Positions 16,601 to 59,724 of a stretch of DNA of 64,000 nucleotides are shown here, one piece after another; position 1 is the first letter of the stretch; each line of letters begins with the position of its first letter. Made by a program: the position numbers and the translations under genes. Under the pieces are notes generated by a model. That model had not been told where the DNA came from. It worked only from the letters and a program-made list of their open reading frames with translations, and ran no database searches. Source of the DNA: a virus; IMG/VR virus record IMGVR_UViG_3300045988_171964; one strand, given 5' to 3'.

Positions 16601-19600
16601 GTTTGCAGGCGGTTTTACCCAAAAGAACGTGATGGATATGTTCAATAAGGGTGCAGGTGCAGGTTGGATATGGCAGAAGATTATCGAGGCAAACACAAAA
16701 GATGCCAAGCAGGGTAGTTTCCGTTTCAATATGAAAACAGGAAACTATACTTATACTGATAATAGCGGTAAAACCGTCAAGGGTAATCCTACAGGCTATA
16801 AAGGTCTGTTATCTTCACTCGTTCATTTCCAGAACGCAACCAAGCGCGAAACAAGTAAGGATAAGGAAATCAATGATTACTTCAATCAGGTAGTTAATCT
16901 TGATGGCTATACTCCTTGGGTAGAAGATGAACCTGGTACGCTTGAAAATGAAGCACCCGATAATGATGCCATCCGTGCTGCGAAGCAGGAGGCACGCGAT
17001 CAGCAGCGTTCCTGGCGTGAGGAGTTGAAGCAGAAGCAGGATGAAGCAAACGCTATCATGGATAACGTGCGCAACTTCTATGAGCGACAAATCAACGAAA
17101 AACTGTCACAGGCAGTAAGCCTCGGTATGGATAAGACGGAGCAGGATTTGTTCGTAGAGCCAGTGAAGAAGCGTATGGATGAAGCCCTTTCGCAGGTGCG
17201 CCTTGCTATCGCTGGTCAGGCTAACACCTGGGAGGACTTCAAAAAGACGATGGATAATGATCTTATCGAGAAGACCGATGAGACCGGAGTTAATCTTTCC
17301 AAGAACCTCCTCACCTCCATTACGCAGAATAATATCGCAGCCCTGCGCACGAAGATGGCTCAGTTGGGTAATAGTCTGAACCGTCCGATGAACTCCATCA
17401 CGGCTGAAATATTTGCCAAGGCTACCAAGAACCAGCAGGATCGTGTAAAGCTGGAAGCGCAGCAGGCAGAAGCCCGTAGAAAGGTGGCTCAGGAGCATAA
17501 CTACATGGGTGCCGTGCAGCAGAATATGTATGACGATTTCAACCAAATGGGCTATGCTACCCCAACCGATTTTGAAGCGCAGGACAAGGAAGCCTTTGAC
17601 AGACGCAAGGCACACATCATTTCCATGTACGAGCAAGCAAGAAAGCAAATCGCCAACCTTTATACAGTTGATGTCAGCAATAAAGAAGGTAGGGGATTGC
17701 TGATGCAGGTACTCTTTGGCGATGATCCTTATGCGCTGGGTGCCCGCATTCAGAGTGTATTGGGCGACAATGCGGAAGACTGGAGGGTGTTCTATAACAA
17801 ACTTATTCAGTATTCTGATGAATATACTGAGGCTCAGAAGAAGACCTACGACCAGGCAAAAAAGATTGCCGAGCAGATGTGGAAGGTCAACCAGCGCAAT
17901 CTTGCCAACCAGGAAACCCTTCGCAAGATGCAGCAGGAAAGCGCCCTCTTCGGTAAGCGAACCAATATGTGGTCGAATCTTGGTCTCGGCGATCTTACCG
18001 CCGACCCAGAGGTGGAGCTGATGAAGATGAAGATGCAGATGGCGGAAGATTATTATGCTTTCGTTTTCAAAAATTCGAGAAATCAGCAACTTATCGATGA
18101 AGCTGACAAGGCTCGTCAGGAGGCAGAACTTGCCTATGTCAACCAAATGGCTACGGCGATGAAGAACCGCCTCTCACAGATGCAGCAGCTTGTGCAGCCT
18201 ATCGAGACCTTCGGTGCAGAAGTAGGCAAGGCATTTGCTGAAATGCGCAATGATGTAAGCAGCGCACAGGAAGCTATCAAGAACGCTCTGAAGTCTATGC
18301 TCGAATCGTGGGGTAATATGGCGCTCAACGATGTGAATACGCAGATGTGGAAGGCTATCAATGATGCAGGTGCCAAGCGAGCCAAGAAGAAAGCGCAGCC
18401 TGGTATCGATGCAGCAAGAGCCAACGCTAACGCCAATGCCGTGAAGGAAGACTTCTCTCATCTCGGCACAAAGGCGAACCCGATGTATGTGCGACTGGTA
18501 GATGAGGGAGCATCTTATCTTACTCAACAGCCGCAGTCTAACTTCGAGAATATGACTCCTCAGCAGCCGGCTCTCGGTTGGAATCCTGACGGCTCGCCTA
18601 TCAATCCTAACAGTCCGGCTATTGTGCCTCCATACGCGCCCCCTGCAACCCCCGAGCAGGCGAATAAGCAAGCAGAGGGCAATGGTGCTCCTCATGCGTG
18701 GGCACATCGCAATCGAGACAATGCCAATGCGTTTTACCAGGATGCCGCAACGCAAACGGGTGCGGCAGCAGCCGATGCTATCGCAGGTGGCGGTTCCTGG
18801 TCCGATGTCGCAGCCGGTATCGGCGGTTCTTTCATCGGTGGCGTAATGAATACCGAGTTCAAGACTGGCGGCGGCAAATCAAAGGAGGATAAGGAGAAAG
18901 CCGAGCAGTTGAAGAAGGAGAAGAAACACCAGAAGGAACTGAGCAAGGAGGTAAAGAAGGGCAATAAGGAACGTGAGAAGGTTACCACGCAGGGTGTCAA
19001 GAACATCACAGACGTAACTGATGCCGGAAACAAGGAGCAGACCGAGGGTACAAAGATAGCTTTGAATACAGGTATGGCTATGACGGAAACGGCGCTCACT
19101 ACCAACCTTGCGAAAACGCAAGCCAATAACGAAGCTGTTATCGAGTCGGATGCTGACCGCACGCGAGCAGGAATGACCTTCTCTATCGCTGGTGCCATCG
19201 GTAAGTGCTTCGACTTCCTAGGTCCTATCGCGGGTCCTATTGCTGCTGCTGGTGTGATGGCTACCCTGATGGGCTTGCTCCAGTGGGCACTCAATTCAGC
19301 CTTCAGCGGCGGCAAAAAGAAGAGTAATACCAATACTACCAATACCAAGCTTGTTACTGGTATGCTTACCTATGATTCCGGAAACGTTCAAGACTTGAAG
19401 CCATTTGTGGCTGATAATGGCGAGGTGTATTGGGCGAAGGAGGATGACGGCAAGCAGATGCAGGGCGTGAAGATGCTTACATCTCCAACCGCCACCACCG
19501 TTAATGGTCAGCCGTCTCTCGTAGCCGAGAAAGGACCGGAAATCGTGATTGGCCGTGAAACCACTCATGCCATGATGATGAATAACCCTGCCCTGCTGAA

Positions 19601-19907
19601 GGCGCTGGTCAATTACGACAGCAACTATTCGGGAGGAAACTCAGCAAGAAGGGCATTTGATAGCGGCAACGTGGGTGATGTTCTTGCAGCAGGCACGCAA
19701 GCAGGCAATGGTAATCTTTCGTCTGGCGCGTCAGCGGCAGGCGACCTGATTGCAGCCAGCGCAGCAAGCAATGCGGCGCTCCTGCAAGCTGTGAATGCGC
19801 TCATTCAGCGCCTCAATCAGCCTATCAACGCCCAGATTAACATGTATGGTCGTGACGGACTGCATGATAGCCTGAATAAGGCTAATCGGTTTATGAAGAA
19901 TAAATAG
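13689..19907 (+). CDS. tail tape measure protein
   Basis: 2072 aa with long coiled-coil stretches. A TP901-type core-like region (YQGAKLGMGKYGVEGMKQFVAAADQINVAIGEEMGEEALPALSKMVETMGL) and central hydrophobic segments. Confidence 0.85.
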   Translation: MAKNKTEAIITLNGQQPLQVLKQLQEAAAGISEQIDAAQAKLKNLKPNTDPYKALDATIKDLKKQYDLLASAQIKDISANERLQSVVDQLSNTSLRNLRRALGDGKRQLEGLSEAELDQANAIRSMMKEVGDQVRLLEGKYVKIEKGLKNISIQSDQWLSKAITQQRDLVASLEKTDASYLKNHATLKQLEREEDRRNGKLTTPEAMTVVQDRTSTASELRRAKTSITQARDNVDTSDTAQIKAYNEALAKIEERLDAVSGKAQKTAIGWQKMRQVLSNPGKASGEDIKQTMDAIQQKIQQLPAGSKAVSDLRRQYAQLEQTMKGTRLSQAQLNDIVARSKTGKANINELRQAYKQLEEELNQLNTKSKEFNEKQKELKDLKKNIDNATGAISQQSKSWQTALKNLTAYVGLFQVFNAIKDTVTSAIKKNFEYSSSLTDIRKVSGLTMQDVNKLSEELAKIDTRTSVDGLAQLAYQGAKLGMGKYGVEGMKQFVAAADQINVAIGEEMGEEALPALSKMVETMGLIPKMGIEKAMLATGSAMFKLSSTSTSTSTNIVEFAKRLTGVSRTAGITTDQLLALGSASDSLFLMPEVSATAMSKFIVALQKNHNLIEKDLGIPDGTIKRMYAAGNAMDAIVMVLEKMRDKGNMNALGGIFKDLGSNGQRLVTAMVTMSKNVDVLKDHLYESKEAFEEATAVTSEYTMQQQSAAGILDRANNLWEKAFINPDGVESVKSMAQAWYDMSQMILQSPIFKNTLQAAMWSVITACKVFVTLLPLIANYVAALGIYKAVSFLWELGKAIKAAAAAQTLFNSAAKVNPYVAIASAIVTAVGVVWSFVEADREAAAAEAEAARKANAWKDKLKEAQSQTDTLTRKLHSYKTTLEALNVSQNARNTQIARFNRDFRQYISKLGIEIKSVSDLKKHYSELAQEIQRATYYRLREEAKQSVMPSYQMDRLNAANRIKKELNNLGLFAGGFTQKNVMDMFNKGAGAGWIWQKIIEANTKDAKQGSFRFNMKTGNYTYTDNSGKTVKGNPTGYKGLLSSLVHFQNATKRETSKDKEINDYFNQVVNLDGYTPWVEDEPGTLENEAPDNDAIRAAKQEARDQQRSWREELKQKQDEANAIMDNVRNFYERQINEKLSQAVSLGMDKTEQDLFVEPVKKRMDEALSQVRLAIAGQANTWEDFKKTMDNDLIEKTDETGVNLSKNLLTSITQNNIAALRTKMAQLGNSLNRPMNSITAEIFAKATKNQQDRVKLEAQQAEARRKVAQEHNYMGAVQQNMYDDFNQMGYATPTDFEAQDKEAFDRRKAHIISMYEQARKQIANLYTVDVSNKEGRGLLMQVLFGDDPYALGARIQSVLGDNAEDWRVFYNKLIQYSDEYTEAQKKTYDQAKKIAEQMWKVNQRNLANQETLRKMQQESALFGKRTNMWSNLGLGDLTADPEVELMKMKMQMAEDYYAFVFKNSRNQQLIDEADKARQEAELAYVNQMATAMKNRLSQMQQLVQPIETFGAEVGKAFAEMRNDVSSAQEAIKNALKSMLESWGNMALNDVNTQMWKAINDAGAKRAKKKAQPGIDAARANANANAVKEDFSHLGTKANPMYVRLVDEGASYLTQQPQSNFENMTPQQPALGWNPDGSPINPNSPAIVPPYAPPATPEQANKQAEGNGAPHAWAHRNRDNANAFYQDAATQTGAAAADAIAGGGSWSDVAAGIGGSFIGGVMNTEFKTGGGKSKEDKEKAEQLKKEKKHQKELSKEVKKGNKEREKVTTQGVKNITDVTDAGNKEQTEGTKIALNTGMAMTETALTTNLAKTQANNEAVIESDADRTRAGMTFSIAGAIGKCFDFLGPIAGPIAAAGVMATLMGLLQWALNSAFSGGKKKSNTNTTNTKLVTGMLTYDSGNVQDLKPFVADNGEVYWAKEDDGKQMQGVKMLTSPTATTVNGQPSLVAEKGPEIVIGRETTHAMMMNNPALLKALVNYDSNYSGGNSARRAFDSGNVGDVLAAGTQAGNGNLSSGASAAGDLIAASAASNAALLQAVNALIQRLNQPINAQINMYGRDGLHDSLNKANRFMKNK

Positions 19908-32880: not shown

Positions 32881-32921
32881 TGCGGCGGTGAAGTCGTCGC
32901 TCTATTAAAACAGAAAAGACT

Positions 32922-33344
32922 ATGAATAAAAGAACAATTCCAGCCTGCATCATGGCTACGCTTGCAGTAGGTGCAACCGCCACTGCTCCCTATTATGATG
33001 TAAATATCACGCAGCAGCTCTGTGCTCCTTCATGCGTGGACGAGACTCCGGTTTTCAACCCTCAGTTCTCTGTAAAGAGTATTGACAACGTGGGTACTTC
33101 GCAATATCTCATAACCATTCACGTAGAGGGTGTTATCAGTTACGTGCCTTGCAACTGTGGCTCCTGCTGCACCCGCTCGCAGGTAGTAAGTCAGGATTTC
33201 ACCATTCCTGTTTTCTCTGCTACGGCAATCACGAACGTTACCACATCTCTTGGCAGCGTGAAAAACCGTCTTGTCAAGGTAGCCTGCTGCTCCTGCAGCA
33301 AGACTTTCGTGTGCGATGCTCCGTTAACACTCACCATCGCATGA
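32922..33344 (+). CDS. hypothetical secreted Cys-rich protein
   Basis: Signal-peptide-like N-terminus MNKRTIPACIMATLAVGATATA, followed by 10 Cys after the predicted signal peptide. Confidence 0.45.
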   Translation: MNKRTIPACIMATLAVGATATAPYYDVNITQQLCAPSCVDETPVFNPQFSVKSIDNVGTSQYLITIHVEGVISYVPCNCGSCCTRSQVVSQDFTIPVFSATAITNVTTSLGSVKNRLVKVACCSCSKTFVCDAPLTLTIA

Positions 33345-35377: not shown

Positions 35378-36478
35378 ATGCAAGAACAAATAAATCTTAC
35401 AATTCCGAAGGGTTGGAACCAATGTACTCCCTCCCAGTTGGAAGCCCTCGCTGCCATCATGCAGGAGCAGATAGCCAAAGTAGACCGCTATCACCCCTTC
35501 GATATGCAGAAGGTGAAGATAGCCGTCTTCTTCCTTTTTGCGGGGATAAGCATCAATGCCTATCCCGACCCTCGTCTGCCCCTCAATGAGCAACATTACC
35601 TGGTAAGCATAGAGCCGCAGAAGAAGAGCCTCCTGAAGAAGCTACTCTCCCTCTGCGCCCCCGTCCCCAGCGATTCTATCGCTGGTCACCCCCAGAGTAG
35701 CCATTTCCCCCTCTACCTCTGGCAGCTCAACTATTGGCTCTCCCCGAAAGCCAAGACCGATAATAAGACCTCCCCTGAGTATATCGCTCAGGGCGCAGGT
35801 CTTCTCGATTGGCTGGATGCAGATAGCGGTAATTTTCTCACCCGCTTTCCCTATCCGATTATCGGACAGAAAGCCAAGTGGTATCGTCGTGCAAAAGCCT
35901 TTCGTGGTCCGAACCCAGACCTCGATGGTTTCTCCTGGCAGCAATACCGTTTTGCCAGTGATATGATGCAGACCTACACCAAGTTAAGCAATAACCTGGT
36001 AAAGATGAAGCAGATGAATAAGTTCACCGAGGAGCAACTCCAGACGCAAGCTCAGAGTGTCGCAAGTGCAAGAAACATGTTCCTTGCTACCATCTTTAAC
36101 ACCACCACCCAGTACGTCGATCCGACAACAGGCATCACGAAATACGATTTTCATTATGAGTCCAAGCAGTTCACCGAGAACGCAGGTTATTTCGTCAAAT
36201 ATCCGGAAGCCAACTGGCAGGTGATATTATTCTGGTGGAGTGGCATCATGCACACCCTAGCCCATCGCTATCCTCACGTATTTAAGGTGCAGAAGGTAGA
36301 TAATAAAAAGCCGCAAACCCCGATGGAAATCTACACCGCCACCACCGCCACGATGCAGAAGTATGCTGGCCTAACGGAAGATCAGGTCAATACTCAGTCC
36401 TATTCCCTCGTTCTCGAACACCTCGAAAGGTTGTCGAAAGAGAATGAGGAAATGGAAAAAATGAGGAGAAACAAATGA
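35378..36478 (+). CDS. hypothetical protein (Motif-A copy embedded in frame)
   Basis: 366-aa ORF. Its stop overlaps the ATG of the first TRD-like mini-ORF (ATGA). Confidence 0.5.
   Translation: MQEQINLTIPKGWNQCTPSQLEALAAIMQEQIAKVDRYHPFDMQKVKIAVFFLFAGISINAYPDPRLPLNEQHYLVSIEPQKKSLLKKLLSLCAPVPSDSIAGHPQSSHFPLYLWQLNYWLSPKAKTDNKTSPEYIAQGAGLLDWLDADSGNFLTRFPYPIIGQKAKWYRRAKAFRGPNPDLDGFSWQQYRFASDMMQTYTKLSNNLVKMKQMNKFTEEQLQTQAQSVASARNMFLATIFNTTTQYVDPTTGITKYDFHYESKQFTENAGYFVKYPEANWQVILFWWSGIMHTLAHRYPHVFKVQKVDNKKPQTPMEIYTATTATMQKYAGLTEDQVNTQSYSLVLEHLERLSKENEEMEKMRRNK
35651..35687 (+). repeat. Motif-A hairpin copy A6, inside a CDS
   Basis: CTCTGCGCCCCCGTCCCCAGCGATTCTATCGCTGGTC, translated as LCAPVPSDSIAGH. 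Confidence 0.85.
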
Positions 36479-36606
36479 TAGATGTAAAGGCATCTGTACA
36501 CCCTTTGAGTCATAAACAGAAATGGAAGAAATGGGCGGGGCTTTCTCCTGCACTCAGAGCCACCGATTACAAATGCCCACACTGCATAAGGATAGAGTAT
36601 GAATAA
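36475..36606 (+). CDS. C5-MTase TRD-like mini-ORF a (43 aa)
   Basis: MIDVKASVHPLSHKQKWKKWAGLSPALRATDYKCPHCIRIEYE. SPALRATDYK resembles the (S/T)PTLRAxDYK TRD block. Ends in the TATGAATAA junction. Confidence 0.5.
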   Translation: MIDVKASVHPLSHKQKWKKWAGLSPALRATDYKCPHCIRIEYE

Positions 36607-36730
36607 CCATCGTTTTTATCAATATCCACGAGGCGAGAATAAGGGCGGTATTCTAAATACGGATCTCTGCCCTACCATTACCATCAATGCGTGGGAGTCG
36701 AACGTTTTTCTGATAAAGAAATATGAATAA
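36599..36730 (+). CDS. C5-MTase TRD-like mini-ORF b (43 aa)
   Basis: MNNHRFYQYPRGENKGGILNTDLCPTITINAWESNVFLIKKYE, with a CPTIT...W..N TRD-type block. TATGAATAA junctions at both ends. Confidence 0.5.
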   Translation: MNNHRFYQYPRGENKGGILNTDLCPTITINAWESNVFLIKKYE

Positions 36731-37049
36731 TAACACCCAACCTCAATACAAGCGAGGAACGATTATCAAGAACGGAAAGAGATATGGCTTTTATCCTGAT
36801 GGTTCTCTCTATCGGATATACTCCACCTCCGACCGTCCGTTTCTTGAAATCGTGGATATAGAAGGTAAGACCTTCCTACGCATTCGTCAGGCAACAGAGC
36901 AAGGTTATACCGATTGTCCTGCACCAGGTGCAGCCGATTTAAGCTACCCCTCTTCTGCCCTAAGACGTAGCCGCACCGTTGGAGGGGGTAAATTGGTAAA
37001 TGCACTCACGGCTGCCAGTAGCAATCCGTTTGTGTTTGTAGAATTATAA
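36723..37049 (+). CDS. C5-MTase TRD-like ORF c (108 aa)
   Basis: IRQATEQGYTDCPAPGAADLSYPSSALRRSRTVGGGKLVNALTAASSNPFVF resembles the ATKxGY..GD..L.P.S.TRRGRVG...TLT TRD type. Confidence 0.55.
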   Translation: MNNNTQPQYKRGTIIKNGKRYGFYPDGSLYRIYSTSDRPFLEIVDIEGKTFLRIRQATEQGYTDCPAPGAADLSYPSSALRRSRTVGGGKLVNALTAASSNPFVFVEL

Positions 37050-37078
37050 ACAAAAAAAGATTTATAGAGCAAAACAAA

Positions 37079-38380
37079 ATGATAACAAAGTTTAATTTCA
37101 AGGATAAGACTATTAAGTCTTATGCCATCCGAAAGCTGACACCCTTCGAGTGTTTCCGACTGATGGGTGTTCGTGATAACGTGATACAAACCATGCAGAG
37201 TACCAATGCCCAGGCAGCCGAACGCATCGCCAACTACAAGGGCAAGGGCAAACCTGAAGATATGGCAGTATCAGCCAGTCAGCAATACAAGCAGGCAGGT
37301 AACTCCATCGTGGTAGATGTGCTCGCAGCCATCTATCAGCAACTCTGGTATCCGAAAGAGCCAAAGCGTGAGGCACAGACCTCATTCTTTGCCGATTTCT
37401 TCCCAGAAGACCAACTCCCTACCTATCCAGTAGATAAGAACCATGGTGAGAAACTTATCCTCACCACCTTTTCCGGTTACGACTCGCAGTTGATGGCAGC
37501 CGATGTTCTCGCCCAGCAGCACCCTGATTTCCGCTGGACGTGCGTAGGCTGGAGCGATATAGATAAGTATGCCTGTCAGATGCACAACCTCATCTTTCCG
37601 CAGTTTGCTGACAAAGCCTTGGGCGATATAACCAAAATCGACTGGCAACAGGTAAAGAATAATGTGGGGGGGCAAGAAATCGACCTTTTTACCTATTCTT
37701 CACCTTGTCAGGATATATCGCAAGCCGGCAAGCAGATGGGGTTGAAGGAAGGTTCCGATACCCGCTCGGCATTATTGTGGCGAGTAGCCGATGCCGTGGA
37801 AGTGTTGCGCCCGAAGTATCTGCTTCAGGAGAACGTGGCAGCCCTGGTAAGCGAGAAGTTTCTGCCCGATTTTCAGAAGTGGCTTGATAAGCTCTCATCT
37901 CTCGGTTACGTAAGCCGATGGGCAAGACTCAATGCCAAAGACTATGGTGTTCCGCAGAACCGCGACCGAGTTTTCTGCCTCTCAATGAGAAAAGATGTAG
38001 CCTTCGATTACCAGTTTCCCGACCCTATTCCGCTGAAGAGAAAGTTGGAAGATGTGTTGCAGGAGGAAGTAGATACAAGGTTCTTCTTGAAAGATGAAGC
38101 CGTCAGCAAGTTCCTCCAGGCAAACGATAAAGACACCTGCGTCTTCCATCAGTTCGATATAGAGCCGAGCCACGAGAACGCCATGGCATTGAAAGCCATC
38201 CTCACCCTTTATCTGGAAGAGACGCATCTTTGGCATTGCACTCCCCAAGAACTGCAGGAACAGCTTTCTTCCGCTCACGAGGACATCATTATGCCGCTGT
38301 TCAATGACTGGAAAGAGAACGGCAAGTTCGCAAATCCTAAGTTGGAAAGTATGTATCATCATTTTTTGGAGAAGAAATGA
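37079..38380 (+). CDS. DNA (cytosine-5) methyltransferase catalytic core, circularly permuted (IX-X then I-VIII), no recognisable TRD
   Basis: Motifs in order: IX AIRKLTPFECFRLMGV; X YKQAGNSIVVDV; I TTFSGYDSQ; IV YSSPCQDISQAGK; VI LLQENV; VIII PQNRDRVF. Contains G7 at 37666-37672. Confidence 0.9.
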   Translation: MITKFNFKDKTIKSYAIRKLTPFECFRLMGVRDNVIQTMQSTNAQAAERIANYKGKGKPEDMAVSASQQYKQAGNSIVVDVLAAIYQQLWYPKEPKREAQTSFFADFFPEDQLPTYPVDKNHGEKLILTTFSGYDSQLMAADVLAQQHPDFRWTCVGWSDIDKYACQMHNLIFPQFADKALGDITKIDWQQVKNNVGGQEIDLFTYSSPCQDISQAGKQMGLKEGSDTRSALLWRVADAVEVLRPKYLLQENVAALVSEKFLPDFQKWLDKLSSLGYVSRWARLNAKDYGVPQNRDRVFCLSMRKDVAFDYQFPDPIPLKRKLEDVLQEEVDTRFFLKDEAVSKFLQANDKDTCVFHQFDIEPSHENAMALKAILTLYLEETHLWHCTPQELQEQLSSAHEDIIMPLFNDWKENGKFANPKLESMYHHFLEKK

Positions 38381-38568
38381 GCAAGAAAAAGATTCGCAAT
38401 AAGATACCGAAATGCACTCAGTGCTCTGCATCTCTTAATTTCGTTGGTAATGAAGAGTATGGAGATAATGGTTATAAGTATCTTTATCATTGTCCGAACT
38501 GCAGTGCAGACTTAGAGGTTTTTGAACCTTTGGAAGAAGATAAACCCCAATATCCATTTTGGCAATGA
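38377..38568 (+). CDS. zinc-ribbon protein (63 aa)
   Basis: CTQC...CPNC. ATGA overlaps with both neighbours. Confidence 0.5.
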   Translation: MSKKKIRNKIPKCTQCSASLNFVGNEEYGDNGYKYLYHCPNCSADLEVFEPLEEDKPQYPFWQ

Positions 38569-38714
38569 TAAAGGTAAGTTCTTTAAACCCGGACCCTATC
38601 TATCTTGTAGTAAGCAGATGTTTGAAATCACAGTATCAGCGAAACTCGATAGTAAACTTTCTGAAGGCTACAGGCGGTAGGGCTGCAACGGCTGTAATAG
38701 TAAGATATGATTAA
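38565..38714 (+). CDS. TRD-like mini-ORF j (49 aa)
   Basis: MIKVSSLNPDPIYLVVSRCLKSQYQRNSIVNFLKATGGRAATAVIVRYD. Weak TRD likeness. Ends in the TATGATTAA junction. Confidence 0.4.
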   Translation: MIKVSSLNPDPIYLVVSRCLKSQYQRNSIVNFLKATGGRAATAVIVRYD

Positions 38715-38880
38715 AGGTTTATTTTCATTAAGCATACATCATAAAATGCCGATAAACGTAGATAACGATTGCTTTCACTGTCCGGTCTGCACTCATTATC
38801 ATAAGCTGGCATTATCCGATATTCTTCCTGGTTTAAAACGTAGGTGTAATCGTGAGGGTGCTGTAATTGTAGAAATATAG
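38707..38880 (+). CDS. mini-ORF k (57 aa), Cys/His-rich
   Basis: ..DNDCFHCPVCTHYHKL..KRRCNREG... Starts in the junction motif. Confidence 0.35.
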   Translation: MIKGLFSLSIHHKMPINVDNDCFHCPVCTHYHKLALSDILPGLKRRCNREGAVIVEI

Positions 38881-38884
38881 AACT

Positions 38885-39034
38885 ATGAATAGTAATCGCC
38901 CTATCATCCTCGGCTCGTATAGCCCATCTCAAAACGGCATAATCGTGCATCCTAAAGGTATTGCCCTATGCCTTTGTGGAGGGGGCAAAGGGCACGACGT
39001 AGATAAACCGAAAATATTATTAGAGTATGAATAA
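38885..39034 (+). CDS. C5-MTase TRD-like mini-ORF d (49 aa)
   Basis: MNSNRPIILGSYSPSQNGIIVHPKGIALCLCGGGKGHDVDKPKILLEYE, of the SQ..RVY..GI.PTL.A.GGG type. Confidence 0.5.
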   Translation: MNSNRPIILGSYSPSQNGIIVHPKGIALCLCGGGKGHDVDKPKILLEYE

Positions 39035-39128
39035 GGTTATAATAGATAAAGGCAGCATTCCTCCTTCTGAAGAGAAAGAGGATGATCCTAATGATATGCC
39101 ACCCCTCGTATTGATAGAATATGATTAA
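39027..39128 (+). CDS. mini-ORF e (33 aa), acidic linker-like
   Basis: MNKVIIDKGSIPPSEEKEDDPNDMPPLVLIEYD. Junction motifs at both ends. Confidence 0.3.
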   Translation: MNKVIIDKGSIPPSEEKEDDPNDMPPLVLIEYD

Positions 39129-39297
39129 GATATTAGCCATTCACGAGGCGAGAACAGAGCACGCAAAGGAAGTACGCAAGCAGACTGGCACCAACGATTA
39201 TCGGGATAAAGCCATCTTCTTTCGTGACAGCTTCCTGATGCAGTGCATCGGTACCTTCCACACGAAGGATAATCTCCTTGCCTTCAGATATGAATAA
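39121..39297 (+). CDS. C5-MTase TRD-like mini-ORF f (58 aa)
   Basis: ..RTEHAKEVRKQTG..FRDSFLMQCIGTFHTKDNLLAFRYE. Paralog of mini-ORF h. Confidence 0.5.
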   Translation: MIKILAIHEARTEHAKEVRKQTGTNDYRDKAIFFRDSFLMQCIGTFHTKDNLLAFRYE

Positions 39298-39306
39298 AGA
39301 AAAGTT

Positions 39307-39471
39307 ATGAAAGAAATACATCCGATAGTAGTAGGCTTGCTGAATATGCCTCCGTTTGATAAGCGTTTTCAGCTGGCAAAACGAGTGTATGCAGTAAAAG
39401 GCATAGCCCCTGCTTGTAATACATGTGGAGGGGGTGGACTTCAGCCCAAAATATTTGTGGAATATGATTAG
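39307..39471 (+). CDS. C5-MTase TRD-like mini-ORF g (54 aa)
   Basis: ..FQLAKRVYAVKGIAPACNTCGGGGLQPKIFVEYD. Paralog of mini-ORF d. Confidence 0.5.
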   Translation: MKEIHPIVVGLLNMPPFDKRFQLAKRVYAVKGIAPACNTCGGGGLQPKIFVEYD

Positions 39472-39646
39472 GCAAGCCATCATTACTCACTATCGAACCG
39501 AGGAAGCGAAGGCATATCGCAAGATACACGGCGACAGAGGCGGTTGCCGTTATAAGGATAAATACCATCGTCCAAGCCCATCACCCTGGAGTAACTGCAT
39601 TTCCACCGTAACAAAAGATAATCTTTTATGGCAGCAATACGAATAA
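39464..39646 (+). CDS. C5-MTase TRD-like mini-ORF h (60 aa)
   Basis: ..RTEEAKAYRKIHGDRGG...SNCISTVTKDNLLWQQYE. Confidence 0.5.
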   Translation: MIRQAIITHYRTEEAKAYRKIHGDRGGCRYKDKYHRPSPSPWSNCISTVTKDNLLWQQYE

Positions 39647-39786
39647 GAACCTGCGCAAGCAGAGGCAGAGCAGATGGAGATTGGTATTCCAATCCTCACT
39701 CCCAAAGGTTAGAAATCGGGGGGGGTATCAGTAACGCCATCTCCTCCATCGCCAAGGATTTCATGATCATTATCAATTATGAATAA
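39628..39786 (+). pseudogene. degenerate C5-MTase motif IX-X remnant (52-aa ORF i)
   Basis: MAAIRIRTCASRGRADGDWYSNPHSQRLEIGGGISNAISSIAKDF. IRIR and SQR..IG.GIS...IAK echo motifs IX and X, but motif IX is only legible (SRWRLVF) in another frame. Contains G8 at 39718-39725. Confidence 0.35.
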
Positions 39787-39795
39787 AAAGAGGAG

Positions 39796-39826
39796 CCACC
39801 GTTCCCAGCGATTCTATCGCTGGTCC
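39796..39826 (+). repeat. Motif-A hairpin copy A7
   Basis: CCACCGTTCCCAGCGATTCTATCGCTGGTCC. Confidence 0.85.
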
Positions 39827-39836
39827 CCTCCCCTCT

Positions 39837-39872
39837 TTGTCCCCACCAAAACCACAAAAACCCCTAACTTTA
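39837..39872 (+). promoter_or_regulatory. phage promoter, TTGTCCCCA-N19-TAACTTTA
   Basis: TTG at 39837 and a variant -7 box at 39865-39872, in the same register. Confidence 0.5.
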
Positions 39873-39966
39873 CACTCAGAAATAGAGAAAAAAGCGGGCG
39901 CGCGTATATCGCCACCCTTCTCTCTTTCCATCACATTCAGGATAACATAAAAAAAGAAACGCAAAA

Positions 39967-41784
39967 ATGGCAAGCAAAAACAAAAACAGAGTAACCAACC
40001 TGCAGCAGCTCCTAAATCGTAGTGAGGAACTGAAAGATGCAGGCTATGTAGCCGTTCGCCCGGATGCCTTTACGCCGCTTAAAAATGGCGGCGGTAAAGT
40101 CTTTTCCTGGAACGACTACGTTCACGGCATGCTCCTAACCACAGCCGGTATGTCGGCAAGCGGTGGCGACACAGGCGGTTCTGCAGCACGTCAGCAAGTC
40201 TCCACTATCTTTGCATCGAGTGGCGGCGAGAACCTGGGTAAACCGAAGGACGTAGGTACCGAAGGCTTAGGCTTTATGGAATGGGGTATGGCCAACCGAC
40301 TGCCAAATCTTATCTGGATGCTTTCCCGTATGTCGCCTTTTACAGCAGCAGGAGTAGATTACATCAAGAAGATACTGGTAGGTCGCGGTCCCGCAGCCAA
40401 GTATCATTACACCCAGTACGTTGGCGGTAACATCACGGAGAAGTATATCCCCTACGAGAGCGCAGGAGTTCTTCTCCGAGGTCAGATAGCTGACCTCAAA
40501 GCCAAGGAAGAGGCAGCCGCCGAAGCCAAGCGCCAGAACGAGCAGCAGAACCAGAACGGGCAGTCTCAACAGGAGGAGTCTCCGTTCTCTGCGGTTCAAT
40601 CGCAGGTCTTATCCACCGATGAAGAGGAAAGCGAGGAGATGAAATCCCTGAAAGAAGCACTCCACAAATGGGAAGAAACCAATGCCCAGCTTCGTGATTT
40701 CTTAGAAAACAACGACCTGATGCAGACCTTCCTCGATTTGGCAGGAGATATGGCTTTGATGTCACAATGCTTTGTAGAACTTCAGCTTAATCAGCGTTCC
40801 CTCGACGAGAACGGCAAAGCTGTTCCCACCGCTCAATGGACTCCGAAGGTGATCGGTCTGAAGCATCGCAGTATCTTCACTACCCGACTGGAGCGCATGG
40901 ACGAGAACTACCGCATCAACTATGCCTACGTCAGCAATCAGTGGCTCGACCCTACCCAATACGTCGGTGTGCAGAAAGAGGAAGACCGCAAGATAGCGGC
41001 TATCCCTTATCTCCCTACCCCATCAGCCGTGAAGGATTTGCAGCGCAAGATACGCGAGGCACGTCAGAAGAACGTAAGCCGCAAGAAACGCCCTACTCGC
41101 TTCATCATGTCGCCAAGAGATTTCGGCGGTCCATACTATGCCGATGCCCTTTGGCACTCCATCTTTGCCGGCAGCATTTTTGAGTATGCCTTCACCATCG
41201 TAGATGACCGCCTTACCCGAAAGCGCAACAGTAACATCATCGGTAGAGTTATCTATATCCATCAGGACTATATCAGCAGGCTCTATCAGCAGCAGGGTGA
41301 GAAGAAAAAGAAGACCCAGGGCGAGATTCAGAACGAAATCTTTACCTCTATCAATACCTGGCTCTCTAACCCCGATAATGCTGGTCAGGCGCTCATTTCC
41401 TCTGCCTTCACGGGCAGCGATGGGAATGAGCACAAAGCTTGGGAAATCGTAGAAATCGAAACCAAGGCAAATGATCAGGCGAATGCCGACAAAACCGAGT
41501 TGCAGGAAATAAGCAGCATCATCTTCTTTGCCATGGGACTTGATGCAAAGCTCATTGGTAATACCCCTGGCGATACGGCATCATCGGGCGGTACAGACCT
41601 GAGAGAGCGCTTCCTTGTCAAGCAAATCCAGTTTGCTCCTTTACAGCAGTTAATGATACGCCCGTTGGAAGTTTTGAGCCGATTCAACGATTGGGATGAG
41701 CACCTGGTATGGCAGATAGACCGAGAGGTATTGACCACCCTCGATAACTCGAAGACCGGAGTGGCGAAACAAGAGGCCTCTTAA
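39967..41784 (+). CDS. portal protein (putative)
   Basis: 605 aa. It opens the long plus-strand virion block behind a phage promoter. Size and overall character fit a portal, but there is no diagnostic motif. Confidence 0.5.
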   Translation: MASKNKNRVTNLQQLLNRSEELKDAGYVAVRPDAFTPLKNGGGKVFSWNDYVHGMLLTTAGMSASGGDTGGSAARQQVSTIFASSGGENLGKPKDVGTEGLGFMEWGMANRLPNLIWMLSRMSPFTAAGVDYIKKILVGRGPAAKYHYTQYVGGNITEKYIPYESAGVLLRGQIADLKAKEEAAAEAKRQNEQQNQNGQSQQEESPFSAVQSQVLSTDEEESEEMKSLKEALHKWEETNAQLRDFLENNDLMQTFLDLAGDMALMSQCFVELQLNQRSLDENGKAVPTAQWTPKVIGLKHRSIFTTRLERMDENYRINYAYVSNQWLDPTQYVGVQKEEDRKIAAIPYLPTPSAVKDLQRKIREARQKNVSRKKRPTRFIMSPRDFGGPYYADALWHSIFAGSIFEYAFTIVDDRLTRKRNSNIIGRVIYIHQDYISRLYQQQGEKKKKTQGEIQNEIFTSINTWLSNPDNAGQALISSAFTGSDGNEHKAWEIVEIETKANDQANADKTELQEISSIIFFAMGLDAKLIGNTPGDTASSGGTDLRERFLVKQIQFAPLQQLMIRPLEVLSRFNDWDEHLVWQIDREVLTTLDNSKTGVAKQEAS

Positions 41785-50729: not shown

Positions 50730-53700
50730 ATGGCAACAGAAGCAAAAAATACAAATTATTGGATCTCGAGCACTGCGCTCTCTATCCAGCTAAATTCGAT
50801 GGGAGAGCCTGACTACATCCAGTGTAGTGTAGTATCGGGCGCTTCGGTCCTCTGCTATATGAGCGATGTGCCAGGCTTGGGCTATGATGCCGGTCACAAC
50901 TATCAGCGCTGGACGCTTGCTGCCTATCCTTCTATCTTCCCCGATAGCAAACGGAAGTATGTGTATATCGCCATTCCACGACAGTCTACCACCGATAATA
51001 ACCAGGCTACCGTCGTGTTCCCTGGTGAGAAGATAGATATATATGGTAAGACTATTCCATCTTCCGGAACTGAAGGTGTGCAGATAGGTAACGAGGCTTA
51101 TTACTATATCTTTACAGGCGGTATCATATCTGCTGTAAAGACCGATGCCGACAATACCAGAAAGCGAGAATGGGAACAGCATTTTGATTGCGGTAAACTG
51201 GCTACCGACGAGGCGATAGCCAGCGGCGGTGAAGGCGAATGGTGGCGGTATAATTCCGTATCAGATACCATCACCTTCCTCAAGGAGATTCTGAAGGCAA
51301 ACTTTAATGAATTGTCGGCAAAGGTAGCTCGCGTAACCAGTCTTTTCCTGGGTGGGCATGAACTGAGGGGCGTTGCTGACAGTAACGGCACCCTGGAAAT
51401 AAGCGATGATACCGTAGTTACCCCTCAGTATCTCGGTCAGTTTGGGGTGAAGCATTTCCTTGCCAAGGATAAGGATGATACGGCCCATGGCACTATCACT
51501 TGGGAGAAGGTTCAGAAGTTCTTGCAGGGGTTGCATGTCGGTAACCGCAACAATGAGAACGGAGGTTCCTGGACTCCCGATGCAGAAGGTCGTTCACACC
51601 TCATAACAGATTACTTGGAGGTAAGAATGAAGGCTATCTTCGAGGAGCTGGTCATCAATAAAACATCCACCATCGGTGGTAAGGAGATAATCTCTCCTGC
51701 TGGCGGTGTGGTGGCTCATAAGGTAGAAGAGGTTACTGTGACATATAATAATGTGTCACAGAAGGCTTATCGTTGCTACTTCCTCGCAGAGCAGGAAGGC
51801 GATTCTGTAGATAATGATTTCGCTGTTAACGATCAGGTGCGCTCGGAATCATTCAATGTACGCAAGGGCACTTACCACAAAGTTGGCAATCACTTTTACT
51901 GGCGATTGGTAATCGGTCGTGATGAAGACCCTGTAGAGCTGGAAGGAAAGAAATATCATTATATCGACCTCTCTGATACCGATTGCGCTACGGCAAGCGA
52001 TGTTCCTGCTAAAGGTGATGTGCTCAACCAGTGCGGTAATAGAACCGATGTAGAACGTCAGAACTGCCTTATCTTCTCGGCGGTAGATACCTATTCGCCA
52101 TCCATCAGCCTCTATCACGGCATCAATAGCTATTCCTTTGCCAATAGGGAGTATGTGGAATATGGTGTGAATAAGCAGACTAACAGGGCTTTCTTCCATG
52201 TCTACGGAGATATGTACTTCGGAGACCGACCTACTAGTGCCAATAACTACGAGGGTGATTCCTATGTCAAGTTTGATAGCGAGACGAAGAAAGTAACCAT
52301 CAAGGGAGACTTGGATATTAAGTCCACCTATGATGGCAAAACCTTGGATAAGTACATCACCGAGAAGAGCTTGGATAAGAATGCCGTTGAGACCATTATC
52401 AATAAATCGCAGACGATTATCGACCTTCAAAACCAGATAGACGGAGCTATTGAGACTTGGTTCTATGACGGCGTTCCTACTTTGAAGAATGCTCCAGCCA
52501 TCAGTTGGAAGACCGACAATGATAAGAAAACCCACTTGGGAGACCTCTACTATGACAACAAGACGGGCAAGGCATACCGCTTTGCCAAGGATGGCTCTAC
52601 CTATGAGTGGATTATCATCACAGATACGGAGCTGACCAAGGCACTCAAAGATTCAAGCCAAGCACTCAAAGATGCAGCCGCTGCGGATAAGAAGGCTAAT
52701 GGAGCGCAAGCTACCGCCAACACCAAGAGACGCATCTTCGGCTCTCAGCCAGTTCCACCATACGATGTGAACGATATGTGGGTGAACGCAACCTATCCGA
52801 ACGATGGTAGCACTTACAAGAACGAAATCTTGAAGTGTTCCACCGCCAAGGCAGAAGGCGAAAAGTTCGATATTGCCGATTGGAAATTGGCTAGCAAGTA
52901 TACCGATGACACGAAGGCAGAGGAAGCCAAGAAAGCTGCTGAGAAGGCGCAAGAAGAGATTAAGACGACACAGAGCAACTTGAACGCCCTCGGAACGACT
53001 GTTACCGAAAACAAAAAGACGTTCGACAGCTACGTCAAAGATGGCTACCTAGAGCCTTCTGAGATTGCTGCAATGTCGCAGGATTCCAAGCGACTTGAAG
53101 ATGCTTTCGCAGCTGCCGAGAAGTCGTACAATGAAGTGAAGGGAGCAGAGGTGTTAAAGAGTACAAAAGAACTCACCGACCTTAATACTGCTTTCACTAC
53201 TCTCTCTACTGCCAAGACGGAACTCGTTACGTATCTCTCAGATATATCTACAAATTACAATAAGGCTGATACTACCGGCAAGGCTGCCATCGTATCTGCT
53301 GTCGGAACGAAGTTTACCAACTTCCAAAGCGCATATTCTGCCTTCTATGACAAGCTGGGTTTGGCAAACGCATATATCACTAGCAAGATATATGGTGACT
53401 TGAAGCAGAATATCACAGACCTCGCAGGTTACAAGTATCTCAAGGATGCGCTCGGTCAGACTACATATGTTGACGGTGGTCTTGTAATGACAACGCTCCT
53501 TGCGCTGAGAGACGGAGACGGAAACGTTCAGAGCGGTATCAACGGAGCAATAGACCCGAATAGAGGAAAGAAGAGTATCGCAACATGGTGGGGCGGTCAG
53601 ATGGTGGATAAGGACTATAATAGCGGAAATCTTACCCCTGCAACCTCCCTCATCCGCTTCGATGGCTCGGGTTATCTTGCCAATGGTGCTATCTGGTGGG

Positions 53701-56700
53701 ATGTGAGCGGAAAGGTTCACGCAGACCCGACATCGTTTATCATCAGTGAGAAGAATCTTGGCGCATACCTCACCTTCTTCGAGCCGACTTGGAAGGAAGG
53801 AAGTGCAGGAACGAGCGTTGCTGACCTTGTGTCTTTGAAGCCAAACGCTCCATTCTCCAAACTTGGCGTATCGGGCGATGCTACATTCGAAGGCGCAATC
53901 TCCTTCCATGGCATTAAGCTCACGTATGATTCCAAAAACAAGGCTATCAAAATTGATGGCAATCTCTATACCACAGGTGGTATCACGGCATACGGAGCAG
54001 GAGCATCTACCACGGGTGGTGGCGGCTTGAACGGCAGTGTGAAGAGTTATTCAAATGCCTTGAAGCTTACATCAGAATCGCTGTCTGAGATAGCTTCTGC
54101 CTACTCCATCAAGGCTCTTGATTCTCGTATCTCCAGCTTGGAAGGTGGTAGTGCTACTGCTATTTCTGTCAGCGGTAGCGGTAATGCGGTTACGTCTGTC
54201 ACCAAGGATGGTACTACTATCAGCGTAGTTAAAGGTAGTACGTTCTTAACTAGTCATCAGTCACTTGATGGTTACGTTAATGCAATATCTGTAAGTGGAA
54301 GTGGGAATGCTATCACGTCTGTATCTAAAAGCGGAAAGGGTATTACATTTACTAAAGGTGCTACATTTTTAACTTCTCACCAAAGTCTTGCTAACTATTA
54401 TACCAAAAGTAGTGTAGATTCACTTCTTAGTGGTAAGTCGGCAACTAGTCATACACATAGTGTTAAGATTAACGGTGTTACTAAAACTATTGCAGCTACT
54501 GGTGGAACTGCTGTAGATTTAGGAACTTATCTTACTAGTCATCAATCTCTTAATGGGTATGCTACGCAATCTTGGGTTAAAAGTCAAGGTTATCTTACTA
54601 CCCATCAAGATGTTAGTATTCTTAACATGGCTAATGATAGATATTATTATAAAGATAATTATGGTATAAATATGCGAAATTCTGATATTATTGGAGTTAA
54701 TAGTATTTATACTAAAGATTTATCTGATGACCCTTCAGAAGCTATTCTATTTTGTAGAAGTAACGGTAACTATGATGGTATTCGTGCAGCAAATGGAGTA
54801 TTATATTTTAGCAATAATGTAGTTAGAACTACTAGAAAATATGATGCTGAATATGAAGTTTATCATAAAGGTAATCTTACTAAACTTAGTCAACTTACTA
54901 ATGACAAGAACTTTGTTACTGGTTCTGTAAGTGGTCAAACTATTACTATCAATGGTGTTTCTACTACTTGGCAAAATACTTGGAGAGGAATTACTGATAG
55001 TTATAGTGGAACTTCTACTGGTACTAGTCTTAGTCAAAAAGGTGCAAATAGTTTATATAATGCTTTGCATAATGGATATGCTAGCAGCGCAGGTAATGCA
55101 GATACTGTAGATGGTTATCATGCTAATGGTAGCAATGTTGCACCCTATGGGCATATACCTACTATAGAAAGCGATGGAGTAATGGAAGTAGGTAAATATA
55201 TTGACTTTCATAATGATAATAGCGGTAAACATGATTTTTCTACTAGATTACTAACTACTGGTAATTATGGAAATTCAGTTAATCTTCCATCAGTAGGTGG
55301 TACATTAGCGTTAACTTCTGACAATGTAGCTTCTGCAACAAAACTTGCGGCAGCAAGAACGATATGGGGTCAAAGTTTTGATGGTACTGGAAATGTTAAT
55401 GGAACTATATACATAAATAATAGTGATTCTGAAAACGGAGCTATAATATTAAATAATAATGTAAATGCTAATGCTCGTATATCAGCTATAAAAGACCAAG
55501 TAGTATTTAATACTGGTGCTGCTATTCGTTTTGGAGCAACCAACTGGGAGTATAGTGATTGGGCTGGTCTTAAATATGATACTGTTGCTAATGCTATATA
55601 TTTAGGTATAGCCGATGGAACTGTATTTAATTATTATTCTAATAAAAGAAGTAATGGTACACTTAAATTTCCAGGTATTACAACTATAACTCCTGATAGT
55701 GGAGCTAGAATTGGAGGTAGCGGTGGTGATTTATATTTAGGTAATGGTAATAATACTAATTGGGTGAAAGTTCAAGACATGTGTAGTCAAGTAAATAGTA
55801 GTTATTGGAACATAACACAATTCGGTAGTGCTACGTTTAAAAGTCTTACTGTTAATGATGTTATTAGTTGTGATAGTATTAGTGTTAGTAAAAATGCCGT
55901 TATTGCTGGTAATTTATCAGTTAACGGTTTAATAAATAATAAAGGTATATTACCTACAAATTATGAAGTTAATAATAAAGGAATGGGTTGTTATGTTTCA
56001 GCTGATGCTTTATGTTCTGGAATTACTGCTATTACTGATAGTATACCAGTTGATAATCTTTCTATAGTTTATAGTAATGATAATGGTACTAATTGGACTA
56101 ATTATAATATATCAAATGATACTAAATTTAAGGCGTATGCGAATGTTGCAGGTGTTGATGGTTTTACCTTAGGTGGCAATGTTATCACTGGTAATACTGA
56201 TGCTGAAAAGTTAGCTCAAATAAAAAAGAACGAATTAATGTTTTCGTTTGAAATTCCTAATTCTTGTTATTCTCAAGTATATTTTGCTTGTGTTGATATG
56301 GGACAAGGTGTTGGTGTTACTTGTACTGTAGAATATTTAAATAGTAAAGGTGTTATAGTCAATACTTATATTAAATATATGACCGGACGGAATCAGTTTA
56401 ATTATATAAATTTATCTAATGGTAATACGGCTTTTGGTGTAGGAAATGATGATAGAAGATATATTCGTTTTAAATTTAAACATGACCAAAATACTACTGC
56501 ATTACGAAATGCTTCAATAAATAGAATACGAATATTTGCTTTTACTAAGTATTCATTTCCTACTGATAGATTTATGGGGCATACAGGTCATATATATAAC
56601 TTTGATTATAATTTGAATACTTACTTCCCTAATGGCATTCTTGCTAAAGGTGGAGTTACAGCTTATCAATCTTCAGACATCCGCCTGAAGCAGGATTTGC

Positions 56701-57047: not shown

Positions 57048-57055
57048 ATTAGAAA

Positions 57056-59711: not shown

Positions 59712-59724
59712 GCCTTAACCCCTT

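Follow-up and report, generated by a model that had tools for sequence, protein, structure and literature searches.

Multispecific C5-cytosine methyltransferases (C5-MTases) of Bacillus phages (M.SPRI, M.Phi3TI, M.Rho11sI and the H2 type) were reportedly described by Trautner et al. in 1996 (EMBO J 15:1434, cited in PMC12707154). In these SPR/phi3T-type enzymes, all target-recognition domains (TRDs) lie in one polypeptide between motifs VIII and IX, and the enzymes are phage-borne and presumed to act against restriction. The locus reported here, at positions 36475–39786 of a 64-kb stretch of viral DNA (IMG/VR record IMGVR_UViG_3300045988_171964, 64,000 nucleotides (nt), hereafter the window), is likewise phage-borne and combines one catalytic framework with several short TRD modules of different sequence type. 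Unlike in the SPR/phi3T-type enzymes, each TRD here starts and stops on its own, and the TRD-less core stands between the two blocks into which the array is divided. All genes of the locus lie on the + strand: three mini-open reading frames (mini-ORFs, u1–u3), a core of 433 amino acids (aa), a 63-aa zinc-ribbon ORF with a CxxC...CxxC pattern, and eight more mini-ORFs behind it (u4–u11). The 11 mini-ORFs are 33–108 aa long, and an initial annotation of the window had this layout and all of its ORFs in the right places. The best explanation, to which we give a probability of about 0.6, is that a permuted, TRD-less core is programmed in trans by interchangeable TRD mini-subunits.

Natural circularly permuted C5-MTases are also on record (M.BssHII, M.Alw26I, M2.Eco31I, M.Esp3I and M2.BsaI), with the TRD covalently attached (PMC5944983). 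The core resembles the M.BssHII type in that motifs IX–X precede I–VIII and the permutation point falls in the variable region. Unlike in these Type H/J enzymes (PMC5944983), there is no TRD at either end of the core, whereas a distant 3-kb contig (L083, positions 1–2961) retains one, attached covalently at the N-terminus of a permuted core. This contig carries free TRD ORFs on both sides of the core, with the tails VYEI, EYEL and DYEL (YEI/YEL instead of EY[ED]). By its gene layout it is an intermediate form, and the related architectures taken together suggest a series that leads from canonical multi-TRD enzymes through split or permuted enzymes to the fully 'atomised' form in the window.

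Two-polypeptide C5-MTases are represented by M.AquI and M.EcoHK31I, and fragment complementation has also been demonstrated (PMC3404938), which sets a precedent for such plasticity. An M.AquI-like, split and multispecific enzyme lies at 3019–4959 of Dulem virus 40 from lemur gut (L081, PP511379.1), in a 258-aa alpha subunit with motifs I–VIII and a 373-aa beta subunit with a fused TRD array and motifs IX–X; the record annotates two methylase genes only. The beta subunit's TRD modules are homologous to u2 and marginally to u5. The locus shares with all three enzymes the separately translated chains and a break in or near the variable region. The difference is that the TRD is fused to motifs IX–X in the beta subunits of M.AquI and Dulem virus 40, and sits on the large subunit of M.EcoHK31I, in enzymes of two chains, whereas here motifs I–X are kept on one 433-aa chain and the TRDs alone are separate, as about ten alternative partners.

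If the proposed mechanism is true, the locus would also resemble the specificity subunits (HsdS) of Type I restriction-modification systems with exchangeable or shuffled TRDs, in which one methyltransferase is programmed by a specificity protein of its own chain and cassette exchange alters the repertoire. Fold and chemistry are unrelated, however (N6-adenine, HsdM2S1), HsdS is a large two-TRD scaffold rather than a 45–60-aa peptide, and, unlike shuffled HsdS, the locus shows no meaningful inverted repeats and no recombinase identified beside it. Engineered split and permuted versions of M.SssI, M.MpeI and M.HhaI demonstrate that C5-MTases tolerate permutation and fragment complementation (PMC3404938, PMC5944983). 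Unlike the units here, the fragments made in the laboratory are large ones that include conserved motifs, and we found no report in the engineered split-enzyme literature of a TRD-only fragment supplied in trans (PMC3404938, PMC5944983). Nor did we find TRDs described as separate cistrons in the full-text literature, which leaves most subscription journals uncovered, so that this is absence of evidence only. The locus thus joins three known departures from the standard C5-MTase, namely multispecific tandem TRDs, circular permutation and multi-chain enzymes, and it fails one defining feature of each: its TRDs are not on one chain, its permuted chain is TRD-less, and its motifs I–X are undivided. 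The multispecific phage, split and permuted enzymes that the initial annotation had named as precedents were the right ones.

The catalytic core

The core matches PF00145 in two stretches, and its motifs could be located in the order IX-X-I-IV-VI-VIII, in keeping with the permutation claimed in the initial annotation. Its features are:

37079–38380, + strand: permuted, TRD-less C5-MTase core, 433 aa (PF00145, E 1.6e-50)
37079–37123, + strand: N-terminal beta-hairpin, 15 aa, invariant (invariant columns among homologues; predicted model)
37124–37171, + strand: motif IX (AIRKLTPFECFRLMGV), residues 16–31, after the N-terminal hairpin (motif search; M.MpeI alignment)
37286–37321, + strand: motif X (YKQAGNSIVVDV), residues 70–81 (motif search)
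37463–37489, + strand: motif I (TTFSGYDSQ), residues 129–137 (motif search)
37697–37720, + strand: motif IV (SSPCQDIS, with the catalytic Cys), residues 207–214 (motif search; M.MpeI alignment)
37823–37837, + strand: motif VI (LQENV), residues 249–253 (motif search; M.MpeI alignment)
37955–37975, + strand: motif VIII (QNRDRVF), residues 293–299 (motif search; M.MpeI alignment)
38003–38152, + strand: proximal variable-region stub (FDYQFP...LEDVL...FFLKDEAVSKFL...CVFHQ), which aligns up to M.MpeI residue 286
38153–38377, + strand: helical C-terminal tail, 75 aa, lineage-specific (AlphaFold model)

The AlphaFold model of the core (predicted local distance difference test (pLDDT) 70) consists of the N-terminal hairpin, a Rossmann-type large domain and a confidently predicted helical C-terminal tail. 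The hairpin, whose sequence is nearly invariant among core homologues, has its strands at residues 2–6 and 11–15, with a pLDDT of 89 for the first 10 residues. In the tail, helices span residues 365–431, and pLDDT is about 86–95 over residues 351–430; Pfam gave no match to this tail at E≤1, and it is a candidate docking platform. A Foldseek search with the model placed M.MpeI (4dkj) and M.HhaI on top with probability 1.00, and the same two proteins were the best sequence matches in the PDB, the closest solved structure being the CpG methyltransferase M.MpeI (4dkj).

The alignment to M.MpeI locates the missing part. Core residues 187–358 align to M.MpeI 112–286, and residues 13–58, from motif IX on, to M.MpeI 331–376; M.MpeI residues ∼287–330, its TRD, are without a counterpart in the core. 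A stub like that of the core precedes the first TRD in the ordinary enzymes with which we compared it (P0330, P0347 and the Dulem virus 40 alpha subunit). Hidden Markov models (HMMs) of 28 mini-ORF families found nothing in 81 cores, even at E≤10, in agreement with the initial claim that no TRD follows motif VIII. When the core was de-permuted, the two PF00145 stretches became one match covering profile positions 23–322. Judged by these profiles and alignments, the core is a genuine C5-MTase without a TRD, predicted to carry out methyl transfer, and its chain ends fall, in the alignment, exactly at the TRD entry and exit points.

TRD homology of the mini-ORFs

A scan of IMG/VR yielded 80 related loci, mostly on contigs of about 50–110 kb, with cores 67–97% identical to that of the window. 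Clustering of the small ORFs around these cores gave 28 families with a characteristic C-terminal tail, and u1–u11 were each assigned to a different family (11 families). Single mini-ORFs had no match in Pfam at E≤1, so family profiles were used for them; the PF00145 model itself holds little information in the TRD region. Searching 1.84 billion representative proteins with the u3 profile (alignment A2) returned 439 proteins at E≤1e-3, and all 10 of the longer matches examined were PF00145 proteins. In P0319 and P0328, which match PF00145 over its full length, u3 aligns in the TRD region directly before motif IX. With hhalign, u3 matched P0319, an ordinary 333-aa methyltransferase, at a probability of 98% (E 9e-14, 46% identity); u3 residues 52–107 align to P0319 residues 220–275, directly followed by motif IX ('RARQLT'). 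In the whole PDB, the only kind of match to the u9 family profile was M.MpeI 301–329 (E 0.23, weak), which sits inside the 286–331 gap of the core alignment, at the predicted position.

Many of the long u3-profile matches are multi-TRD enzymes, on which the family HMMs land as tandem, mostly non-overlapping modules. Two enzymes with, by inspection, the canonical motif order are P0330 (595 aa; families 11, 23, 1, 3 and 13) and P0347 (672 aa; families 14/23, 11, 3, 1 and 4). Tandem modules also occur in proteins made of a TRD array plus motifs IX and X (P0303, P0310 and P0356); in P0303, families 15, 42, 11, 13, 0 and 1 are followed by motifs IX–X. The modules of the fused enzymes end in 'hydrophobic x3 - Glu - Pro', and the phage units in 'hydrophobic x3 - Glu - Tyr - Glu/Asp - stop' or 'VEL - stop'. 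Because the unit ends match the fused-module ends, the stop/start junctions lie exactly at ancestral module boundaries.

Each unit was searched by BLASTP against 12 multi-TRD proteins, and its best score was set against those of 200 shuffled versions of the unit. Eight units (u1, u2, u3, u4, u8, u9, u10 and u11) scored above all 200 shuffles. Taken with the profile and hhalign matches to PF00145 enzymes, this makes 10 of the 11 units homologous, on sequence comparison, to single TRD modules of multispecific C5-MTases, eight strongly and two marginally; the TRD-like blocks that the initial annotation had read in most of the mini-ORFs therefore stand, except in u7 (39027–39128). The units are listed below with the ratio of non-synonymous to synonymous substitution rates (dN/dS), calculated pairwise for each unit family from related genomes that are not phylogenetically independent:

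36475–36606, + strand: u1, 43-aa TRD mini-ORF, family 15 (GLSPALRATDYKCP); dN/dS 0.16; best match TRD module P0310 aa 50–88 (41.6 bits, 0/200 shuffles; family HMM 46.7 bits)
36599–36730, + strand: u2, 43-aa TRD mini-ORF, family 4 (LCPTITINAWESN); dN/dS 0.17; ATG overlaps the u1 stop by 8 nt; matches the Dulem virus 40 beta subunit within its TRD array (38.1 bits, 0/200 shuffles)
36723–37049, + strand: u3, 108-aa unit, family 1; dN/dS 0.10; N-terminal extension of ∼50 aa, then the TRD 'RQATEQGY...SxLRRSRTVGGGK..ALTA', C-terminus VEL
38377–38568, + strand: zinc-ribbon ORF, 63 aa, CxxC...CxxC (sub-threshold zinc-ribbon and CapR matches)
38565–38714, + strand: u4, 49-aa TRD mini-ORF, family 44 (CLKSQYQRNS..NF..ATAVIVRYD); dN/dS 0.18; matches P0348 aa 139–174 (24.6 bits, 0/200 shuffles)
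38707–38880, + strand: u5, 57-aa TRD-like mini-ORF, family 51 (PINVDNDC..THYHK), ending in VEI; dN/dS 0.16
38885–39034, + strand: u6, 49-aa TRD mini-ORF, family 2 (SYSPSQNGIIVHPKGIALCLCGGGKG); dN/dS 0.10; among the most widespread families (58 loci)
39027–39128, + strand: u7, 33-aa acidic mini-ORF, family 33; dN/dS 0.17; strongly acidic (EEKEDDPND) with the common tail LVLIEYD; present in 18 loci
39121–39297, + strand: u8, 58-aa TRD mini-ORF, family 8 (RTEHAKEVRK...IGTFHTKDNLL); dN/dS 0.11; matches P0318 aa 203–243 (26.9 bits, 0/200 shuffles)
39290–39310, + strand: six-codon relay ORF (MNKEKL), read directly from the sequence
39307–39471, + strand: u9, 54-aa TRD mini-ORF, family 11 (RVYAVKGIAPACNTCGGGGLQPKIFVEYD); dN/dS 0.36; matches P0335 aa 56–87 (50.1 bits, 69% identity, 0/200 shuffles)
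39464–39646, + strand: u10, 60-aa TRD mini-ORF, family 3 (RTEEAKAYRK...SNCISTVTKDNLL); dN/dS 0.13; matches P0330 aa 399–444 (35.0 bits, 0/200 shuffles)
39628–39786, + strand: u11, 52-aa TRD mini-ORF, family 0 (SRGRADGDW...GISNAISSIAKDFMIIINYE); dN/dS 0.25; matches P0351 aa 25–75 (30.8 bits, 0/200 shuffles; family HMM 48.2 bits)
39778–39786, + strand: terminal junction motif TATGAATAA, not followed by a unit (comparison with relatives)

The N-terminal half of u3 (36723–36870) is a conserved extension of ∼50 aa with the pattern YKRGT..GK.YG.YPDGSLYRIYST..RPF. A PDB search with the 108-aa u3 profile returned no methyltransferase, and only weak, repeat-like matches of this N-terminal half to the grappling-hook protein GhpA (PDB 9flp). 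The zinc-ribbon ORF, whose cluster has 12 members in the locus set, matched the CapR homology domain PF21817 at a sub-threshold E of 3e-4; as a control in the shuffle test against the 12 multi-TRD proteins it was not TRD-like, with 157 of 200 shuffles reaching its score.

Proposed mechanism

Comparison of the related genomes reveals a TRD-less permuted core, ∼10 selected TRD cistrons with selected starts, linkage of units to the core and cassette-wise variation. In the mechanism that we propose, a multispecific phage C5-MTase would have been taken apart, such that a 433-aa chain keeps all catalytic and cofactor motifs and each TRD has a cistron of its own. The genes, being on the same strand with many overlaps and no terminator-like site in the array, would share one mRNA. 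Each unit would be translated from its own ATG, most of which begin 8 nt before the previous stop codon ends (TATGAnTAA), and this 8-nt overlap would favour coupling of termination and reinitiation. One TRD peptide at a time would then dock non-covalently between the stub (aa ∼305–358) and the N-terminal hairpin with motif IX, which may complete the small domain. As the candidate docking strand we consider the C-terminal tail that the units share ('hydrophobic x3 - Glu - Tyr - Glu/Asp' or 'VEL'). By analogy with the SPR/phi3T-type phage enzymes, each TRD would confer its own target sequence; phage DNA would therefore be methylated at many motifs and escape many host restriction enzymes. Since every module has its own start and stop, modules could be gained, lost or moved at junctions free of frame constraint. 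We put at roughly even odds the wider picture of plug-in specificity subunits for a Type II-like 5-methylcytosine (m5C) methyltransferase, in which ∼10 mini-proteins (43–108 aa) serve one at a time through a shared C-terminal strand and phage genomes swap cassettes at a conserved 9-nt junction. The plug-in principle may be widespread, because stand-alone TRD ORFs with the same tail are also found in more distant elements.

Several points weigh against this proposal. All computationally testable predictions of the trans-TRD interpretation in the initial annotation came out as proposed, but the docking of a free TRD, the non-covalent assembly of core and TRD in general, and the specificities of the units are what we infer, and we count this against it. 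Related gut phages keep their TRD arrays fused, as in the Dulem virus 40 beta subunit. Engineered M.SssI splits in the distal variable region before motif IX have little or no activity (PMC3404938), so docking beside motif IX is not trivially tolerated. Modelling was of little help: a chimera of the de-permuted core and u9 reached a pLDDT of only 34 in single-sequence AlphaFold, and the PF00145 score of the de-permuted core was 174.8 bits with no unit, 178.3 with a shuffled unit and 177.7–187.3 with real units. We did not take these chimera scores as evidence, because they do not discriminate real from shuffled units. Not all units are equally convincing, either. For u5, the match to Dulem beta subunit aa 2–30 is marginal (23.9 bits, 1/200 shuffles), and for u6 the matches, to two neighbouring TRD modules of P0347, are weak (E 0.002 and 0.005), with 6 of 200 shuffles reaching its score, again marginal. 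For u7, no TRD similarity was found against the 12 multi-TRD proteins, 160 of 200 shuffles reaching its score; possible roles for u7 are those of a 'blank plug', of a regulator or of a rival to the TRDs for their slot. Finally, the phylogenetic non-independence of the related genomes affects both the dN/dS values and the junction codon counts given below.

In another reading, which we consider unlikely, the mini-proteins are translated and under selection without completing the methyltransferase. They might instead compete with the core or regulate it, or might inhibit or act as decoys for the restriction/modification enzymes of the host, the core being non-specific or using another specificity factor. 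Such a role would accommodate u7, which has the common tail and no TRD, and the zinc-ribbon ORF embedded in the array, and it would sit well with the poor activity of distal variable-region M.SssI splits (PMC3404938). Yet in almost every one of the 80 related loci the array flanks a core that lacks a TRD, the two ends of the core chain lie exactly where a TRD would enter and exit, and the modules share homology with TRDs that work in multispecific enzymes; moreover, the core would be left without a DNA reader. We know of no autonomous activity of an isolated TRD, which also counts against this explanation.

Junctions and start codons

At seven mini-ORF junctions, the motif TATGAWTAR lets Tyr-Glu/Asp-stop overlap the next ATG-A(A/T)T by 8 nt. 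The window contains 10 copies of this motif, nine of them within 36598–39786 and all nine on the + strand; in whole-window shuffles it occurred 3.8 times on average and at most 9 times. Other links in the array are built differently. The zinc-ribbon ORF overlaps both the core and u4 through ATGA, and the relay ORF starts in the u8 junction ATG and overlaps the u9 ATG with its TGA, again as ATGA, so that u6–u11 form an unbroken chain of stop/start overlaps. The overlap of u11 with u10 is 19 nt, with a frame relation that differs from that of the 8-nt junctions. Overlapping stop/start cistrons on one strand are thus found throughout these links, and a scan for promoters and terminators gave chance-level results, with no + strand terminator-like site inside the array.

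Two further observations concern the junction sequence. At 38869–38892, u5 ends in VEI-TAG and is followed in frame by AAC TAT GAA TAG, a second canonical 'YE-stop' junction three codons past the u5 stop, within which the ATG of u6 lies. This second junction has the look of an older one with an earlier stop now in front. Outside the array, the junction motif TATGAATAA occurs only once, at 32921–32929.

The initial annotation had each module with its own ATG and stop and its neighbours in different frames. In agreement with this, the frame of each unit is closed by a stop 6–60 nt upstream of the ATG, and no unit has an earlier ATG. One start had to be moved: u10 had been begun at GTG 39425, and the junction ATG at 39464 is most likely the start instead. 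Stop-codon reassignment, introns and inteins were considered as ways of joining the units and rejected, as frames differ, junctions overlap and all three stops are used; with neighbours in different frames, no codon reassignment could join them.

Another candidate for joining the units is programmed recoding, by which a +1 shift (GAA|UAA, skipping U) or stop bypass would yield one or two classical polypeptides with several TRDs each, leaving the ATGs incidental. At TAT-GAW-TAA such a shift would bring the ribosome into the frame of the next unit, the next unit is in the +1 frame at 360 of 548 unit–unit junctions in the 80-locus comparison, 300 of the 548 share the 8-nt overlap, and the same modules are fused in frame in other elements. 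We nevertheless judge recoding to be improbable. The remaining junctions are +2 (146) or in the same frame (42), spacers range from -149 to >+100 nt, and the recurrent u10/u11-type junction has its 19-nt overlap and other frame relation; because frame relations are mixed in this way, no single frameshift rule could fuse the units. Between u3 and the core there is a gap of 29 nt with further in-frame stops in the u3 frame, and by codon–anticodon rules tRNA-Glu should be unable to re-pair from GAA to AAU. The closed upstream frames without earlier ATGs likewise favour initiation at the annotated start codons.

Codon choice at the junction speaks to the same question. For the junction Tyr (position -2), TAT is used 451 times and TAC 64 times, compared with 57% TAT elsewhere (odds ratio 5.3, p 1.6e-44), and 37 of the 64 TAC-ending units have no unit behind them. 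Only TAT creates the embedded ATG, and its preference where a unit follows is the pattern expected if that ATG is kept as a start codon, not if it is incidental.

Conservation and cassette variation

Across the 11 families of the window, dN/dS is 0.10–0.36 at a synonymous divergence (pS) of 0.24–0.65, which indicates that the mini-ORFs are translated and under purifying selection. The units stay separate ORFs in the 80 related contigs, where their stops and ATGs are kept. Queried with u3 and u9, the databases return matching clusters by the hundred. The best 120 u3 homologues listed are all stand-alone ORFs of about 83–154 aa, mostly ∼105 aa, and the u9 family profile matches 266 database clusters, of which the best 120 listed are all stand-alone ORFs of 53–88 aa. 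The representatives at 50% identity include many diverse short proteins with Met at the TRD start and similar tails at the end.

While the units themselves are conserved, their arrangement is not. We counted 75 different unit architectures among the 80 loci, even where cores are 94–97% identical. For one cassette insertion or deletion, the upstream breakpoint lies exactly at the junction after u11: two relatives (L006 and L021) carry a further 61-aa cassette exactly at the point of the window's terminal junction motif. The ORF at 39779–39994 after this last junction is not a further unit; it is conserved non-coding DNA left where relatives hold the other cassette. A site-specific recombination or shufflon switch was considered and rejected, since the junctions contain short direct repeats only, with no meaningful inverted repeats, and no recombinase was identified beside the locus; gain and loss of cassettes through junctions over evolutionary time is retained in its place.

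No continuous multi-TRD ORF occurs in the lineage apart from isolated frameshift fusions. In P0087 (482 aa, four contigs), a frameshift in the core tail fuses the core to the following family-2 unit, which is rare, and at 7979–8269 of L018 a family-11 unit runs into a family-3 unit. These fusions may be sequencing errors, decay or tolerated covalent versions. Together with truncated units in several loci, they are what could be expected if the array were the wreck of a once continuous multi-TRD gene and the mini-ORFs non-functional. We regard this as very improbable in view of the low dN/dS across 28 families (0.10–0.36) at pS up to 0.65, the identical ORF boundaries in loci whose cores are only 67–77% identical, the uniform rather than random stop/start junction, and the presence of the same small ORFs in hundreds of independent assemblies. 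An assembly or sequencing artefact, or an alternative genetic code, that makes false stops in a continuous ORF is scarcely credible: the window itself is probably a metagenomic assembly and nothing else speaks for it, whereas 80 contigs, assembled independently in several projects, have the same structure, the units of related loci use each of the three stops (TAA 498, TGA 175, TAG 103), and the large flanking genes are intact under table 11.

Genomic neighbourhood

The window is part of the genome of a gut phage of ∼100 kb, probably one of Prevotella. NCBI lists copies of the core as 'Cytosine specific methyltransferase [Caudoviricetes sp.]' and '[Prevotella sp.]', and the units as 'hypothetical protein'. 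Because its portal has only distant similarity to that of Polaribacter phage Leef_1, we assign the phage, on portal similarity, to an unclassified lineage of phages of Bacteroidota. No match was found among INPHARED phages by blastn with the region or by tblastn with u3. A crAss-like identity was our first guess and was rejected; PHROGs matched almost nothing on neighbouring genes.

The DNA between the array and the portal gene (39787–39966) is conserved and non-coding. It contains a perfect hairpin, CCAGCGA-TTCTA-TCGCTGG, at 39805–39823, followed by a C/T-rich run, and may be an operon end or a regulatory element of the portal gene. Elsewhere in the window, two giant ORFs lie on the + strand at 13689–19907 (2072 aa) and 50730–57047 (2105 aa). 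The G+C content is 0.35–0.37 at 54001–60000 and 62001–64000, compared with about 0.47 elsewhere, and GC skew is strongly positive there; the first low-G+C block starts inside the 3′ part of the 2105-aa ORF. The low-G+C segment may be mosaic or recently acquired.

Implications

If core and TRDs do work in trans, this would be the first C5-MTase known with its sequence specificity in small exchangeable subunits, and a TRD of about 45 residues would prove able to fold and dock autonomously. For designer or targeted cytosine methylation, one core that accepts swappable recognition peptides would make an attractive scaffold, and a possible use is to pre-methylate DNA against restriction barriers in Prevotella and Bacteroidota. 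The related phages offer a natural experiment, in which cassette families could be assigned to DNA motifs by correlating the presence or absence of cassettes with m5C motifs. The set of methylation motifs of a phage would then be readable from its cassette list, and hundreds of 'hypothetical proteins' in gut viromes could get new names. For the phages themselves, the arrangement would explain how the anti-restriction repertoire can change as fast as the 75 layouts in 80 genomes imply.

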